In this document: piece by piece, positions 6,314 through 61,101 of the stretch
Position numbering within the stretch: position 1 is the stretch's first letter
Layout of the letters: each line of letters begins with the position of its first letter
Origin: a virus
Strand: one strand, 5' to 3'
IMG/VR virus record: IMGVR_UViG_3300020193_000003
Length of the DNA stretch: 64,000 bases
The notes under the pieces: generated by a model
What the model was told of the DNA's origin: nothing
What the model saw: only the letters and a program-made list of their open reading frames with translations
Database searches by the model: none
Position numbers and translations under genes: made by a program

Positions 6314-8116
6314 ATGAAATACGCCGGAACATACAATGTAAAGTCGATGACGTCCGCCTACCAATTCGCCCTTGGCGAACTGGCGATGATGGAGGAGGAC
6401 GAACCCGAGGACGAGGTGCTTCTGCCGATACCGCAATCGGAACTGTTCTACGCAAAATCGGCCATAGACGCGGTCCTCTCCGACTACGACATGAAGTCAA
6501 GCGCGGTGCCCGACGGGATCATCCTTTACGACGCGAAGACTATCGGTCCGAGCCTGATCAATGAGCTGAAGCACGCACTGAACGAGGTCCAGATCAAGGC
6601 CCTCGGGGCGACGATCGGCGGAGCTAGGCCGGCGGCCGGTGGCGGCGCCGCCGGGGACATGATCGACAGGGACTCAGACGGATACATCTACGACGGAACT
6701 CCGCAGGAGCAGAGGGTCCCGTACAAGCGACGCGACAACAAGCCGGTCGGCGGAGGCGCGCCGGAGGGGATGGAGCTGCGACGCAGGCAATTCGTGCGAA
6801 GCGAGGCCGCCAGGCAGGGCGTGCAACTCAACCGTGGTCCGAAACGATCGGAGCAGGAGAGAAGGTTCAGGACCGAGGCGAGGGCGAGATTCGACAGAAT
6901 AGCGCTCGAGGGTCAGGGCTTCATCCCGCCGGACAGGATAGAAGCGAGCGACAAGCGCAACTTCGAGAACCGGATGGGCGACGTGAACGCAGGGCGCGTC
7001 GACGATCAGGGCAGGAGCGGTTTCGGTTACGGCGGCGAGCGCGACACGTCGTTCGAGGACAACGAGTATCGCAGACAGCAGGGACTGCGCGACACCTCGT
7101 TCGAGGACAACGAGGACAGGCGCAACGAGGGCAAACGCCCACCCGACACCTCCTTCCAGGACAACGAGGACGCACGCAACAGGGGCAAGCGCCCCGCCGG
7201 GAGACCAGTTGACAGGTTGCCAGGAGCAGGCGGACCAAGCGGGAGTCTCAACCCAGGACAACGAGGGGCCAGACCCGACACGTCGTCAGAGGACGCCGAG
7301 TATCGCAGACAGCAGGGAATGCGCCCAGCAGGTAGACCCGTGGACAGGTTGCCAGGGGCTGCCGGACCAAGCGGGAATCTCAACCCAGGACAACGAGGGG
7401 CCAGACCCGACACGTCAAATCAACGAGCGGAAGACGCTCGCAATCAAGGCAAGCGCCCCGCAGGAAGGCCCGTGGACAGGTTGCCGGGAGCAGGCGGTCC
7501 CGGCTACGACGACTCGTTCAGGGACAACGAAAACCGCCGTCTGGAAGGCAAGCGCCCACCCGACACGTCCAACCAGCGAGCCGAAGACGCGCGCAATCAG
7601 GGCAAGCGGCCCGCCGGGAGACCAGTTGACAGGTTGCCAGGAGCAGGCGGACCAAGCGGGAATCTCAACCCAGGACAACGAGGGGCCAGACCCGACACGT
7701 CAAATCAACGCGCCGAGGACGCCCGCAATCAAGGCAAGCGCCCAGCCGGTAGGCCCGTGGACAGGTTGCCCGGGGCTGGCGGACCTGGTTACGACGACTC
7801 GTTCAGGGACAACGAAAACCGCCGCCTGCAAGGCAAGCGCCCACCCGACACGTCGAACCAGAGAGCGGAGAGCGCGCGTCAAGCCGGCGCTCGTCCACAA
7901 AGACCAGTGGACAGACTGCAAGAACCGGGTGGACCAAGCAGAAATCTCAACCCAGGACGACGAGGAGCCAGACCCGACACGTCGAACCAGAGGGCCGAGA
8001 GCGCGCGTCAGAATCGCGCGCGCCCGAATCGCCCGGCTGACAGATTGTCGGGGGCCAACAGAGCGCGCAGGTTCCCCAGGGGGCGGAGCGACTACTACTA
8101 CGGTGGCGAAGCGTAA
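6314..8116 (+). CDS. Repeat-rich Arg/Gly/Pro protein (600 aa) with the shared KALG...DxDxDG module; putative head-internal protein
   Basis: GGAGG before ATG 6314. IKALGATIGG...DMIDRDSDGYIYDGTP nearly matches the 58732 protein. The C-terminal half is mosaic tandem repeats. Confidence 0.8.
   Translation: MKYAGTYNVKSMTSAYQFALGELAMMEEDEPEDEVLLPIPQSELFYAKSAIDAVLSDYDMKSSAVPDGIILYDAKTIGPSLINELKHALNEVQIKALGATIGGARPAAGGGAAGDMIDRDSDGYIYDGTPQEQRVPYKRRDNKPVGGGAPEGMELRRRQFVRSEAARQGVQLNRGPKRSEQERRFRTEARARFDRIALEGQGFIPPDRIEASDKRNFENRMGDVNAGRVDDQGRSGFGYGGERDTSFEDNEYRRQQGLRDTSFEDNEDRRNEGKRPPDTSFQDNEDARNRGKRPAGRPVDRLPGAGGPSGSLNPGQRGARPDTSSEDAEYRRQQGMRPAGRPVDRLPGAAGPSGNLNPGQRGARPDTSNQRAEDARNQGKRPAGRPVDRLPGAGGPGYDDSFRDNENRRLEGKRPPDTSNQRAEDARNQGKRPAGRPVDRLPGAGGPSGNLNPGQRGARPDTSNQRAEDARNQGKRPAGRPVDRLPGAGGPGYDDSFRDNENRRLQGKRPPDTSNQRAESARQAGARPQRPVDRLQEPGGPSRNLNPGRRGARPDTSNQRAESARQNRARPNRPADRLSGANRARRFPRGRSDYYYGGEA
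7040..8060 (+). repeat. In-frame mosaic tandem repeats (RPAGRPVDRLPGAGGP / SGNLNPGQRGARPDTS / NQRAEDARNQGK / GYDDSFRDNENRR)
   Basis: About 6-7 copies of the RPVDRL unit are visible in DNA and protein, with synonymous divergence between copies. Confidence 0.9.
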
Positions 8117-8128
8117 ACGAGCGAGTCA

Positions 8129-58660: not shown

Positions 58661-58731
58661 CTGTCGGGGACTTACCACGACGAAAGAATTTTCGTGGGAC
58701 AATTGTCCCAAGAATCAACCGGAGAAAATCC

Positions 58732-61101
58732 TTGGACCCAAACGAACTACTCGCTAAGCTGGTCTCAGGCGAGCTCTTGGTCGTCGTCCAGCAGGAACCG
58801 ACGAAGCCAGTCCAGACCAAACCCAAGCTCGCGCCCGAGGAGCAGGAGCTAGCCGACTCGCTTGTGGCGATAGCGAGGAAGTACGGGAAGTTCAACGAGG
58901 ACGAGACCGGGATCTGGGCGGGCTACGAGGCCGCCAAGGACAACGTCGTCGCGCACATCGGGGTGAGGTGCGCCAACTGCGCCCTGTACGAGGGCAACGG
59001 CGTGTGCAAGATCATCGCCCAGAAGGTCGAGGACGGCGGCAAGTGCAGGTTCGCCGTGATACCTGACGGGGTGGTCGGCGGCGTCTACGACCCGGCCAAG
59101 GCCCCGGTGATTCCCGTCAGCTCGGGGAAGAGGAAGATCAAGGTCAAGGAGGAATCGGCCACCTCGTGCCCCAAGGCGACCAGGGACATCGCCACGAACC
59201 TGAAGAACAGGGCGAAGGCGATCAAGACTGCGATGTACGGGCCGCTGAACCCGAAGGAACCGAACGAGGCCTTCTACAAGAAGCTCGGCGCCGAGTGGGA
59301 CGTCTCGGCGGACCAGGCGCGCAAGCAGAAGTGCGGCAACTGCTCGATGTTCATCGTCACGCCCGAGATGAAGTCGTGCATCGAGAAGGGCGTGACTGGC
59401 CCCAAGGGCAAGGACGAGTGGGAGGCGATCGACGGAGCCGGCCACCTCGGGTACTGCGAGGCCTTCGACTTCAAGTGCGCCTCGGAGAGGACCTGCAGGG
59501 CGTGGGTGACCGGCGGTCCGATCACCAAGACGAAGTCGGTGAACGTCCGCCAGTCCGTGAAGGCGCTCGGGGCAACCATAGGCGGCAACGTGTCGGTAAC
59601 CGACGCGGCCGACATGATCGACCGGGACAGTGACGGAATGATATTCGACGGAACGCCGGACGAGCAACCAGTCAAGAAGAAGCCCGGTCGCGGCCAGCCA
59701 TATCAAAGAATGGACAACTCCTTCCTCGAGAAGCGCAGGAGGAGGCACGTCAACCGGTCGCTCAGGGAGCAGGGCATAACCCCGACTCAGGGCAACCAAA
59801 TACACGAACACGACGACGGATCGCTTCATACTTACGGACGCAGCGACGAGGAGAGGGAGGCGAGGGGACAAGCGAGGGCCGACTTCACCGTCGAAGAGGA
59901 CAGAAAGAGGTTCGTCAACAATCAATTGCGCAAGAGGGGAATAAAACCAGCTGAAGGCAACTTTACTGTTGATCCGGAAACTGGAGGAAAATACTGGAAC
60001 GCTCCAAACAGAAGCGACGAGGAGCGTCAGGCCAGGCGAGAGGCGAGGGATGAGTACAACCGCCGCATGAACGCGGGCAAGCCGAGACAGAAGCCGTCCA
60101 CCGGGGAACCCGCCAAACCGCCGGTGAAGTATCCACCTGGATACGTTCCCGGCCTGCCTGCCGACAGGTACCCTGACCCTGGTGCGTACGTTCCAGGTAA
60201 ACCGGCCGATCGTTACCCCCAGGCGCAGAAGCCGGGAGTTCGCTTCCCCACGGCCGACGACGCCAGGAAGGTAAACGAGCGAAAGTTCCCGCCCCCGAGG
60301 GGCTCGGCGAAACCGAGCACCGGCGGCGTCGTGGACGACGGAAGGTACATCAACGAAAACCCGCAGTTCTACGACTTCCAGACCTGGGAGGACAGGCAAA
60401 TCCTCGACCAGCGCAATGACAAAAAGCGCCAGGCCGCACACGACGCGGCCAAGGCGCGTTACGCCGCAGCGGAAAGGGAGAGGGCCACCAGAAAAGCGGA
60501 ATCAAAACGGCCGACTCCTCCGTCCGCACCGCAAAGGACTTCAAGTCGCCCCACCACTCCGAGCCGGGAACCGCGCAATCTGAAGGAACGATTGGTGACG
60601 AACGTTTTCAAAGACGATGAGAGGCGCTCAAGCAACGGCACGGCCCGGGACCGCGACACGCGACCGGCACCGAATCGGCCCACGGGGGGAAACCGCGACA
60701 CGCGACCGGCACCGGATCGGCCAACGGGGGGAGACCGCGACACGCGACCGGGGGACCCACCGCTTCGCGCTCGCATTCCCGAACCTGGATCACCGCCGCA
60801 ACGAACCACGGAACCGGGCAGGTACGGACGTCCCGGCGATCCACCGCTTCGCGCGCGACGACCTGGACCTGGAGACCCACCTCCTCGGACGGAAATAGTT
60901 CCGAGGGGCGACGACGACCGACGACCAAGGCCGGCGACCATCAATCCTCGCGAAATTCCTGGCCGCGACGTGCAAAAGAATCCTCCGTCTCGTACGAAAC
61001 CGATAACCAGAACGCCGAATCCGAACCGCAGAAATCCCGACTCCGACCGAGATCGCCGACCGCGCACTGGAAGGAACTTCGGTCAGGAGCGTGGTAAGTG
61101 A
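58732..61101 (+). CDS. 789 aa protein: two Cys-rich domains, shared KALG...DRDSDG module, Arg/Pro-rich repeat tail
   Basis: CANCALY...C...C and CP...CGNC...GYCEAFDFKCASERTCRAW. VKALGATIGG...DMIDRDSDGMIFDGTP at 59557-59658. TTG start is uncertain. Confidence 0.8.
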   Translation: MDPNELLAKLVSGELLVVVQQEPTKPVQTKPKLAPEEQELADSLVAIARKYGKFNEDETGIWAGYEAAKDNVVAHIGVRCANCALYEGNGVCKIIAQKVEDGGKCRFAVIPDGVVGGVYDPAKAPVIPVSSGKRKIKVKEESATSCPKATRDIATNLKNRAKAIKTAMYGPLNPKEPNEAFYKKLGAEWDVSADQARKQKCGNCSMFIVTPEMKSCIEKGVTGPKGKDEWEAIDGAGHLGYCEAFDFKCASERTCRAWVTGGPITKTKSVNVRQSVKALGATIGGNVSVTDAADMIDRDSDGMIFDGTPDEQPVKKKPGRGQPYQRMDNSFLEKRRRRHVNRSLREQGITPTQGNQIHEHDDGSLHTYGRSDEEREARGQARADFTVEEDRKRFVNNQLRKRGIKPAEGNFTVDPETGGKYWNAPNRSDEERQARREARDEYNRRMNAGKPRQKPSTGEPAKPPVKYPPGYVPGLPADRYPDPGAYVPGKPADRYPQAQKPGVRFPTADDARKVNERKFPPPRGSAKPSTGGVVDDGRYINENPQFYDFQTWEDRQILDQRNDKKRQAAHDAAKARYAAAERERATRKAESKRPTPPSAPQRTSSRPTTPSREPRNLKERLVTNVFKDDERRSSNGTARDRDTRPAPNRPTGGNRDTRPAPDRPTGGDRDTRPGDPPLRARIPEPGSPPQRTTEPGRYGRPGDPPLRARRPGPGDPPPRTEIVPRGDDDRRPRPATINPREIPGRDVQKNPPSRTKPITRTPNPNRRNPDSDRDRRPRTGRNFGQERGK
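60650..60885 (+). repeat. 42 bp tandem repeat (RDTRPAPxRPTGGx) about 2.5 copies, plus PGDPP(LRAR) x3
   Basis: Visible in DNA and protein. Confidence 0.85.

Follow-up and report, generated by a model that had tools for sequence, protein, structure and literature searches.

A conserved tag motif shared by the prohead protease and large head-module proteins of an uncultured phage lineage

One strongly conserved peptide motif of 45-55 residues, here called the tag, marks seven large proteins from the head region of an uncultured phage lineage and can be traced to prohead proteases. The tagged set includes the capsid-maturation protease and comprises ~16,900 residues in total. To our knowledge, a consensus is weak or lacking in the head-targeting signals described so far (T4 CTS, P1 DarB, phiKZ-like propeptides), and virion cargo can therefore not be predicted from sequence. 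Capsid-targeting sequences are already known as a kind; the protease origin of the tag is the main new result. The most likely of the readings considered, to which we give even odds, is that the tag is a short linear docking motif that ties proteins to the interior of the assembling procapsid. The head-loading reading is strengthened by the analysis presented here but still unproven.

Copies and Types of the Tag

The window, i.e., the whole stretch of 64,000 nt that was analysed, contains the motif in exactly six ORFs, all on the plus strand (Table 1). These six had been reported in a sequence-only reading of the same DNA, and translation at all six sites gives the peptides quoted there. The protease polyprotein P0045 has a seventh copy, which is of type A. 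This copy (residues 515-567) is encoded upstream of the window, with Peptidase_S78, DUF6321 and a folded mid domain preceding it in the protein. Searching all 812 six-frame ORFs of the window with an HMM of the tag yielded exactly six matches of 55-90 bits and none other below E = 2.

The three paired variants proposed in the sequence-only reading reduce to two types. Type A (K-x-LG-x-T-IG ... NPxTARDADxDxxVLEG ... GRGVPDPTP, with the hallmark GRG..DPTP) is carried by ORFs 10193, 28407, 34163 and 41156 and by the protease polyprotein. Type B (KALGATIGG ... IDRDxDGxIYDGTP) is carried by ORFs 6272 and 58732, and a D-x-D-x-D core is present in all copies of the tag. In an all-against-all BLASTP comparison of the head-region proteins, the tags are the sole mutual similarity among the four large type A proteins (10193 vs. 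41156: 62% over 64 aa, E 1e-14; 28407 vs. 34163: 69% over 51 aa, E 2e-17; cross pairs: 48-52%, E 1e-5 to 8e-5). The claim that the tagged proteins otherwise share little sequence thus holds for these four but not for the two type B proteins, which are paralogues over 556 aa (BLASTP, 27% identity, E 2e-23).

Within the window the tag starts at residues 15-277 of its ORFs, and elsewhere as far in as residue 536. Its median relative position of 0.03 in 37 family members places it near the N-terminus, and it sits at the extreme N-terminus (residue 14-15) only in the 10193 family. As anticipated earlier, the tag is invariably upstream of the multi-domain cargo part. The cargo domains, found in proteins of 2000-5200 aa, are RNase_T (exonuclease), sigma70_r4 HTH, NUDIX and zeta-toxin, the latter two types lying at the C-terminus of ORF 41156-56887.

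All tag-bearing genes belong to the head module, which extends from the portal and protease genes to just past the HK97-type capsid gene. Among five related IMG/VR records, three carry seven copies in the same head-module order, while the other two are fragments (estimated to be 65% and 32% complete) with four and two copies.

Table 1. Tag copies and neighboring genes of the head module; positions refer to the window.
Feature	Position	Strand	Protein	Remarks
Protease polyprotein P0045, C-terminal part	2..6265	+	C-terminal 2087 of 5106 aa	own type A tag upstream of window
Tag type B, KALGATIGG ... DMIDRDSDGYIYDGTP	6596..6703	+	residues 109-144, ORF 6272-8116 (614 aa, Arg-rich repeats)	from translation and HMM; paralogue of 58732-61101
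Acidic protein	8322..10181	+	619 aa	scaffold-like context gene; homologue of acidic protein of distant phages
Tag type A	10235..10375	+	residues 15-61, ORF 10193-17281 (2362 aa)	most conserved core 10277-10372
Giant protein without tag	17502..28097	+	3531 aa	same A-G-M linkers; no tag (HMM)
Tag type A, K..PIG variant	28518..28652	+	residues 38-82, ORF 28407-31157 (916 aa)	core 28554-28649
Cys/His-rich protein	31512..32087	+	191 aa	candidate docking partner; homologue fused into 14 tagless proteases
Tag type A, K..PIG variant	34844..34978	+	residues 228-272, ORF 34163-39712 (1849 aa)	core 34877-34972
Tag type A	41471..41616	+	residues 106-153, ORF 41156-56887 (5243 aa)	core 41519-41614
HK97-type major capsid protein	57183..58586	+		N-terminal delta-like domain; without tag (HMM)
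Tag type B	59560..59658	+	residues 277-309, ORF 58732-61101 (789 aa)	directly downstream of capsid gene

Conservation and Distribution

In four orthologue families, the tag is the best or among the top 3% of the most conserved 45-aa stretches. It is the single most conserved stretch in the family of ORF 10193 and lies within the top 7 of 872 sliding stretches in that of ORF 28407. Nucleotide identity between close tag pairs is equal to or lower than amino-acid identity, and only 44-69% of the conserved tag residues are encoded by the same codon, which argues that selection acts on the tag peptide and not on the DNA. The motif might also resemble itself by chance, be of low complexity, or go back to a repeat or recombination scar at the DNA level, devoid of peptide function; its shortness is the one point in favor of this. 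This explanation is refuted by E-values down to 2e-17, by the six matches among 812 ORFs, by differing codons and by retention of the tag across phages that are ~50% divergent, and its probability is close to nil.

A search of 1.84 billion representative proteins with the tag profile gave 59 matches. About 38 of these are full-length single-stretch tags, all near the N-terminus, in proteins of 220-6391 aa; the divergent members P0051 and P0046 come from short contigs that provide no gene context. Multi-stretch matches do not belong to the tag family and represent DxDxDG-like repeats in MBG/YDG/cadherin adhesins. Record G004 starts with what looks like an eighth, partial copy (GRGVPDPTP), which was dismissed as chance, its frame being antisense to a real 641-aa gene. 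No match was obtained by tblastn against GenBank phages with either a tagged N-terminus or the tag alone, and no relative was found among 185,579 prokaryote genomes or with one protease-motif query against IMG/VR. No tag was seen in cultured phages of Gordonia and Brevibacterium whose capsid protein is 45% identical, which speaks against the docking reading. Gordonia phage DalanDe, with a protease of 1633 aa and likewise 45% identity in the capsid protein, has no tag either.

Origin of the Tag

The family of S78 + DUF6321 proteases has >3,355 members, and the position of the motif was read in 90 aligned prohead proteases of ~800 aa. In 76 of them, the motif (residues ~480-570) is found at a fixed position directly after the folded protease core, downstream of the S78 catalytic domain (residues 25-179). 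The distant proteases carry a DGDGDG form of the core, and an HMM made solely from distant protease motifs retrieves window tags as its top matches (E 1.9e-5 and 3.5e-4). In more distant phages, each genome has a single tag, as does a record of 169 kb that is estimated to be complete, compared with seven in this clade. These sequences place the origin of the tag in the prohead protease protein, which is known to be built into procapsids; in the clade it would have been copied later onto six further head-module proteins. The HMM of the mid domain matches the region just before the 6272 tag at E = 0.37 only, which is only a hint that "mid domain + tag" might have been duplicated as one unit.

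The remaining 14 of the 90 proteases are tagless. They also have no C-terminal cargo and carry a fused homologue of the 191-aa Cys/His-rich protein, making this protein a lead to the receptor. Because the C-terminal cargo is missing together with the tag, the tag could serve cargo handling and not loading of the protease. Such correlations carry little statistical weight, since the tagless group probably goes back to one evolutionary event and the multiplication of the tag to another. In the more distant phages, a 461-465-aa acidic protein follows the protease and is homologous to the 619-aa acidic protein of the window. The tagless giant of the window is the ancestral giant protein of more distant phages that share the protease type.

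Structural Context of the Tag

AlphaFold models, both of single chains, were obtained for the tag alone and, with a 90-sequence alignment, for a 912-aa protease. The isolated tag reaches a pLDDT of 61 and adopts no confident fold. In the protease, the tag and the Pro-rich spacer following it have pLDDT values <50; the adjoining domains reach ~90. According to these models, the tag is predicted to behave as a conserved linear motif within a disordered region. Foldseek with the protease model found nothing for the tag and only weak matches otherwise, namely T4 gp21 and herpesvirus proteases as well as sigma factors, and the ESM Atlas returned only unnamed clusters with low shared features.

The sequence-only reading had linked the tag to Ca2+ binding. 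A DxDxDG-type loop with a structural or regulatory role (metal-dependent folding, oligomerisation) instead of an addressing function would explain why every copy has the D-x-D-x-D core and why the profile also picks up adhesin repeats, and both type B and the DGDGDG form fit the DxDxDG pattern. However, the best match to a solved structure, the EF-hand loop of a myosin light-chain, has E = 0.79, and a Pfam search with the tag gave no match at E <= 10. Type A has no conserved Gly at position 6, which is M, G, P, R, L, K, D, A, F or T, and nothing in Ca2+ loops corresponds to its invariant N-x-GRG-x-x-DPTP half. Together with the missing stable fold in the AlphaFold prediction, this reduces the Ca2+ claim to a pattern, and we judge a metal-binding role to be very improbable.

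Possible Functions of the Tag

If the tag is a docking motif, giant cargo polyproteins would be co-assembled into the head via the tag, ahead of DNA packaging. Cleavage at nearby small-x-Met↓small motifs (the arrow marking the putative cut) would subsequently free sigma-like HTH, exonuclease, NUDIX and zeta-toxin-like domains from the anchor. The delta domain of the capsid protein, the portal-MuF protein or the 191-aa Cys/His-rich protein are candidate partners. In 24 of 37 proteins, a motif of the type [AGS]-x-M↓[AGSTV] occurs in the 110 aa that follow the tag, vs. 36% of control stretches; ORF 10193-17281 has FAVAAM↓S at residues 84-90, after its tag. The earlier proposal of a capsid-targeting or ejection signal is partly supported as far as loading is concerned, by head-module linkage, the disordered linear motif, its presence in the prohead protease and a T4-like layout, while ejection fits poorly with an origin in the protease.

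The putative cleavage motifs enriched shortly after the tag also agree with a different reading, in which the tag is a recognition or cleavage element of the prohead protease and not a capsid anchor. It might be an exosite recruiting the protease to its substrates or mark a propeptide boundary, with cleavage at K↓[AS]LG or at the downstream Met motif. In line with this, the protease polyprotein itself has the motif, as do proteins that A-G-M linkers divide into parts, and K↓SLG in the tag presumably resembles the maturation site of the HK97 capsid protein. On the other hand, the tagless giant has five good linkers, the capsid protein is without a tag as well, A-G-M linkers are absent from the more distant tagged proteins, and one protease with two different types of site would be unusual. 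We hence regard protease recognition as unlikely. If it applies, the motif would still define the substrate logic of the very large and unstudied S78 + DUF6321 protease family. For the docking reading, the giant protein with the same linkers but no tag implies that the tag would not be the sole route into the head.

A leader for ejection or translocation is improbable in our view. [quoted passage not shown] Furthermore, most cargo modules would be detached from the tag if the linkers are cut. The location of the tag near the N-terminus and the resemblance of the domains to host-directed effectors are compatible with ejection, and the portal carries a fused MuF-like domain, which is a known head-cargo hub (PMC5512222).

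Extending the docking reading, a protease docking peptide copied onto arbitrary polyproteins could be a portable, sequence-recognisable encapsidation tag, for which one receptor (maybe the 191-aa protein) loads the whole cargo arsenal. No earlier head-targeting signal would match it in having a consensus strong enough for virion cargo to be predicted from nothing but metagenomic sequence, and in being movable onto foreign proteins. We incline slightly against this extended version. If the tag is a loading signal, packaged effector proteins could be picked out of metagenomes by a rule, the tag would exemplify how a phage enlarges its injected arsenal by copying one peptide, and it would be a candidate means of bringing foreign proteins into HK97-type capsids.

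Comparison With Known Head-Targeting Systems

In HK97 gp4, the region downstream of the catalytic domain is reportedly responsible for placement of the protease in the prohead, as described by Duda et al. in 2013. The C-terminal propeptide of SPN3US gp245 is an element downstream of the catalytic domain that is held responsible for the same task (PMC7411985). The tag likewise directly follows the folded core of an S78 protease. It differs from both in that six proteins other than the protease share the element and in that, in the ~800-aa relatives, the motif is followed by a spacer, then a linker and a cargo domain of sigma-like type.

The T4 CTS (IPI-III, Alt) is a peptide that precedes the cargo in several internal head proteins, is thought to bind the prohead interior and to precede a site for the prohead protease (PMC7411985). 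The layout of tag, putative cleavage motif and cargo is similar. Unlike the T4 CTS, which has 10-20 residues at the extreme N-terminus and no strong consensus, the tag is 45-55 residues long and strongly conserved, lies up to 536 residues from the N-terminus and is shared with the protease. SPN3US gp47 (PMC7411985) and P1 DarB (PMC9024508) are further precedents for head targeting, in which very large proteins for anti-defence or ejection are led into heads by N-terminal segments (PMC9024508; PMC7411985). Dar proteins have no common consensus (PMC9024508). In contrast to such signals, each unique to a single protein, the tag is a recognisable motif common to seven proteins.

The MuF/SPP1 gp7 domain is a portable N-terminal module bringing diverse effector domains into heads (Iyer et al. 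2017, PMC5512222). Unlike MuF, a folded domain of ~100-250 aa, the tag is a short motif of proteins in which no MuF domain (PF04233; Pfam/PHROG) was found; MuF resides on the portal here. Similar to "polyvalent proteins" (PMC5512222), the tagged proteins combine many unrelated effector-type domains in one polypeptide and are encoded among virion and packaging genes.

Like the cargo-loading peptides of encapsulins, the tag is both short and conserved and lies in a disordered region, a likeness in form. The K-x-LG-x-T-IG-G part of the tag may also be similar to the encapsulin consensus. The encapsulin peptide sits in a disordered tail and attaches cargo to the inside of a shell with the HK97 fold (PMC6387247).

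Genomic Setting

The window has a G+C content of 62% and covers the head genes of a tailed phage as one module, with all real genes on the + strand. Its major capsid protein is of the HK97 type (Pfam Phage_capsid, E = 6e-44; phrog_10, E = 6e-60) and shares 45% identity with its counterparts in Bendigovirus-like phages of Brevibacterium and Gordonia. Upstream of the capsid gene are very large ORFs (2362, 3531, 916, 697, 1849, and 5243 aa), and RNase_T, sigma70 region-4 HTH, NUDIX, and zeta toxin cargo domains are recognized in the window proteins. The domain mix of these giants agrees with the "polyvalent protein" pattern (Iyer et al., 2017; PMC5512222). 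The protease polyprotein P0045, whose C-terminal part opens the window, begins with a Peptidase_S78 prohead protease domain followed by DUF6321; in an IMG/VR record that is 92–97% identical, this protein is preceded by a portal whose C-terminal domain is MuF-like.

The 697-aa protein shows 67–97% identity compared with about 50% for its neighbors, matched no family in Pfam or PHROG, and probably has a core role in virion structure or assembly. In the 5243-aa protein, the most conserved stretch is the N-terminal domain (residues ~38–82), a weak DUF3721 match. The 315-aa protein just upstream appears to open with a similar Cys-containing motif and matches phrog_17747 and phrog_14910 (function unknown). 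The protease relative P0100 (contig JBMSXQ010000001.1, 135 kb) was deposited within an Ilumatobacteraceae metagenome-assembled genome, which hints at a high-G+C freshwater actinobacterial host (Acidimicrobiia) for this phage group.

Coordinates of the features discussed (window positions unless a record is named; L045, L046, and L068 are records of more distant phages)
Position	Feature	Tag
2–6265	C-terminal 2087 aa of P0045 (5106 aa)	type A, upstream of window
6272–8116	tagged protein	type B
8322–10181	acidic protein, 619 aa
10193 (start)	tagged protein	type A
17502–28097	giant protein	none
28407 (start)	tagged protein	type A
31512–32087	Cys/His-rich protein, 191 aa
32080–34173	697-aa protein
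34163 (start)	tagged protein	type A
40134–41081	315-aa protein
41156 (start)	tagged protein, 5243 aa	type A
41156–41400	conserved N-terminal domain of the 5243-aa protein
57183–58586	major capsid protein	none
58732–61101	tagged protein	type B
L045:12946–14331	homolog of the acidic protein
L046:12801–14198	homolog of the acidic protein
L068:12431–13849	homolog of the acidic protein

A Conserved Tag Shared by the Protease and Six Window Proteins

All six peptides that the sequence-only reading had put forward as a shared tag are present in the translation, and their similarity is real. Of 812 ORFs in six frames, a tag HMM picks out these six and no others. In the alignment, all six follow one pattern, K-[AS]-L-G-x-T-[IV]-G and, after a few spacer residues, D-x-D-x-D-x-x-[IV]-[YFL]-[ED]-G-[IT]-P; the four type A copies of the window extend it by I-N-x-G-R-G-[VI]-x-D-P-T-P, and the two type B copies do not. 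The number of six was too low, because a seventh copy, of type A, is located at residues 515–567 of P0045, just outside the window. That the tagged proteins otherwise share little sequence holds for 10193, 28407, 34163, and 41156, in which the tags are the sole similarity detected by BLASTP (E = 2e-17 to 8e-5), but not for the type B proteins, which are paralogs over 556 aa. The type B proteins also carry Arg-rich repeats, RDTSFEDNE..RR..G.RPAGRPVDRLPGAGGPSG. Between 28407 and 34163, identity is 88% at the protein level and 75% at the DNA level, and only 46% of conserved residues share a codon. This codon divergence rules out a DNA repeat, and an origin of the tag by chance or as a DNA repeat is excluded, its probability being negligible.

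Among 1.84 billion representative proteins, the tag profile found 59 matches, about 38 of which are full-length, single-stretch tags in proteins of 220–6391 aa. These are always located near the N-terminus (residues 14–536, median relative position 0.03) and have the consensus KALGPTIGG..RNMNPxTARDADLDRLVLEGIPTINxGRGVPDPTPFG. The remaining profile matches, in MBG/YDG/cadherin adhesins, are repeated hits to the DxDxD part alone and belong to a different family. The tag was found neither in 50,697 GenBank phage records nor in one genome per species across 185,579 prokaryote species. In the three most complete of five related IMG/VR records, seven tags each are present and the order of the head module is kept; four and two tags are seen in the remaining records, which are an estimated 65% and 32% complete. 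Among 45-aa stretches, the tag ranks first for conservation in the 10193 ortholog family and falls in the top 7 of 872 for 28407, the top 58 of 1805 for 34163, and the top 115 of 5199 for 41156.

Modeled alone with AlphaFold (24-sequence alignment), the tag gives a poor fold, with a mean pLDDT of 61 and a single small β-bridge. In the model of a 912-aa protease homolog, built with 90 sequences, pLDDT is about 80–93 for the S78 domain and for two domains further on, and the first tag residues prolong the last mid-domain helix, while the remaining tag and the Pro-rich spacer after it stay at pLDDT <50. A linear interaction motif that becomes folded upon binding should combine high conservation with disorder in this way, and the tag reads as such a motif. 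Alternatively, the tag might be a Ca2+ loop with another role, in keeping with its DxDxDG sequence pattern and the earlier suggestion of Ca2+ binding. Yet similarity to an EF-hand is limited to E = 0.79, Pfam gives no match, and type A has no Gly at position 6, and a loop of this kind is quite improbable.

Origin in the Prohead Protease

With the first 600 residues of P0045 as query and shorter proteins as the only targets, the search found over 3,355 protease relatives, most of them 750–1000 aa long and labeled HK97-family prohead protease. A tag-like motif follows right after the mid domain, at a constant position, in 76 of 90 aligned proteases, in forms including EEKKLGATL..FDPDAxDADxDxxVQEGT and EKGLARGL..RDGDGDGKITNPxTGRDDLP. 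Downstream lie a KP[RK]MMP motif, a Pro-rich spacer, a G-x-M/small linker (the slash marks the putative cut), and a sigma-like C-terminal domain. The ~800-aa proteases (P0066–P0185; L045, L046) have a constant layout of S78, DUF6321, beta domain, Cys cluster, mid domain, and tag, and their C-terminal domain is sigma70 region-4-like with weak Foldseek matches to sigma factors. This layout suggests that the original cargo was a packaged, cleavable sigma-like factor.

An HMM built solely from the distant protease motifs places window tags at the head of its matches among all six-frame ORFs (41156, E = 1.9e-5; 6272, E = 3.5e-4), with 58732 and 10193 ranking next at E-values >0.01. More distant phages, including a 169-kb record estimated complete, have a single tag copy, in the protease. 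Hence, the tag is old in the protease and has multiplied to seven in this clade. The untagged giant 17502–28097 is ancestral, because its homolog comes after the acidic protein in more distant phages; the tagged proteins are thus clade-specific additions. The best match to the protease mid domain in the window is the region just before the 6272 tag, and although non-significant (E = 0.37), it hints that mid domain and tag were duplicated as one unit.

Throughout the more distant phages, the gene next after that of the protease encodes a homolog of the acidic protein (461–472 aa). The acidic protein resembles a scaffold-type protein or a regulator, and the repeats at its C-terminus have a weak match in the C-terminal region of phrog_80 (head maturation protease).

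Proposed Docking in the Procapsid and Alternative Roles

Relative to the tags, the A-G-M linkers that divide the giant proteins as putative protease cut sites occur only downstream. Several families have a linker variant soon after the tag, such as FAVAAM/S 23 residues past it in 10193 and GPVAAM/V in 28407, and in more divergent tagged members G-x-M/A or A-S-M/A motifs follow. A Met-type motif is found within 110 aa after the tag in 24 of 37 proteins compared with 36% of control stretches (p = 3e-4, for sequences that are not independent). From the motif positions, the order would be anchor, putative cut site, cargo, as in the T4 targeting sequence (PMC7411985). The tag could itself recruit the protease or serve as a cleavage element, but this is unlikely considering that the 17502 protein contains linkers and no tag and that the capsid protein is tagless.

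We give roughly even chances to a tag that docks its protein inside the procapsid as this assembles. Once the DNA has been packaged, giant cargo can no longer get in, and each polyprotein thus needs at least one attachment point. The tag, as the sole element common to the tagged proteins, is a candidate for this point and would anchor each polyprotein to the procapsid interior during assembly; the protease holds the original copy. In known phages, the prohead protease is co-assembled into procapsids. The capsid-targeting or ejection signal proposed earlier is partly supported. An ejection leader is hard to square with a motif that arose in the protease and is improbable.

A candidate docking partner emerges from the 14 of 90 proteases without a tag (E > 1), which terminate right after the mid domain and carry an inserted homolog (56–87% identity) of the 191-aa Cys/His-rich protein, which has a gene of its own in each of the five tag-bearing records searched. 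This gene fusion is a lead to the 191-aa protein as a possible tag partner, and the exchange may have happened just once in evolution. C-terminal cargo is likewise missing from these 14 proteases, so that a tag serving cargo handling agrees equally well with the fusion pattern. The sole match of the 191-aa protein is phrog_6439 (function unknown), and its gene overlaps the start of the 697-aa ORF, suggesting that the two might be translationally coupled.

Besides the tag, 17502–28097 (about residue 249) and the 697-aa protein (about residue 144) share the short motif [KR]-x-RC[PG]-x-G-(5 residues)-[QR]-FTD-(4 residues)-x-C, and so do their homologs in more distant phages, namely the giants of L045 and L046 and two L068 proteins of 499 and 712 aa. 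This may be another address-type motif that accounts for the handling of the tagless giant.

Comparison With Known Systems

The targeting region of the HK97 prohead protease is functionally near the tag. Also among the nearest in function are the T4 capsid-targeting sequence, the prohead-protease targeting region of SPN3US (PMC7411985), the P1 DarB signal (PMC9024508), MuF-based cargo modules (PMC5512222), and encapsulin targeting peptides (PMC6387247), but neither its sequence nor its position makes the tag a member of any of them. The novelty lies in a motif that is long, recognizable, and strongly conserved and that the protease has in common with six cargo proteins.
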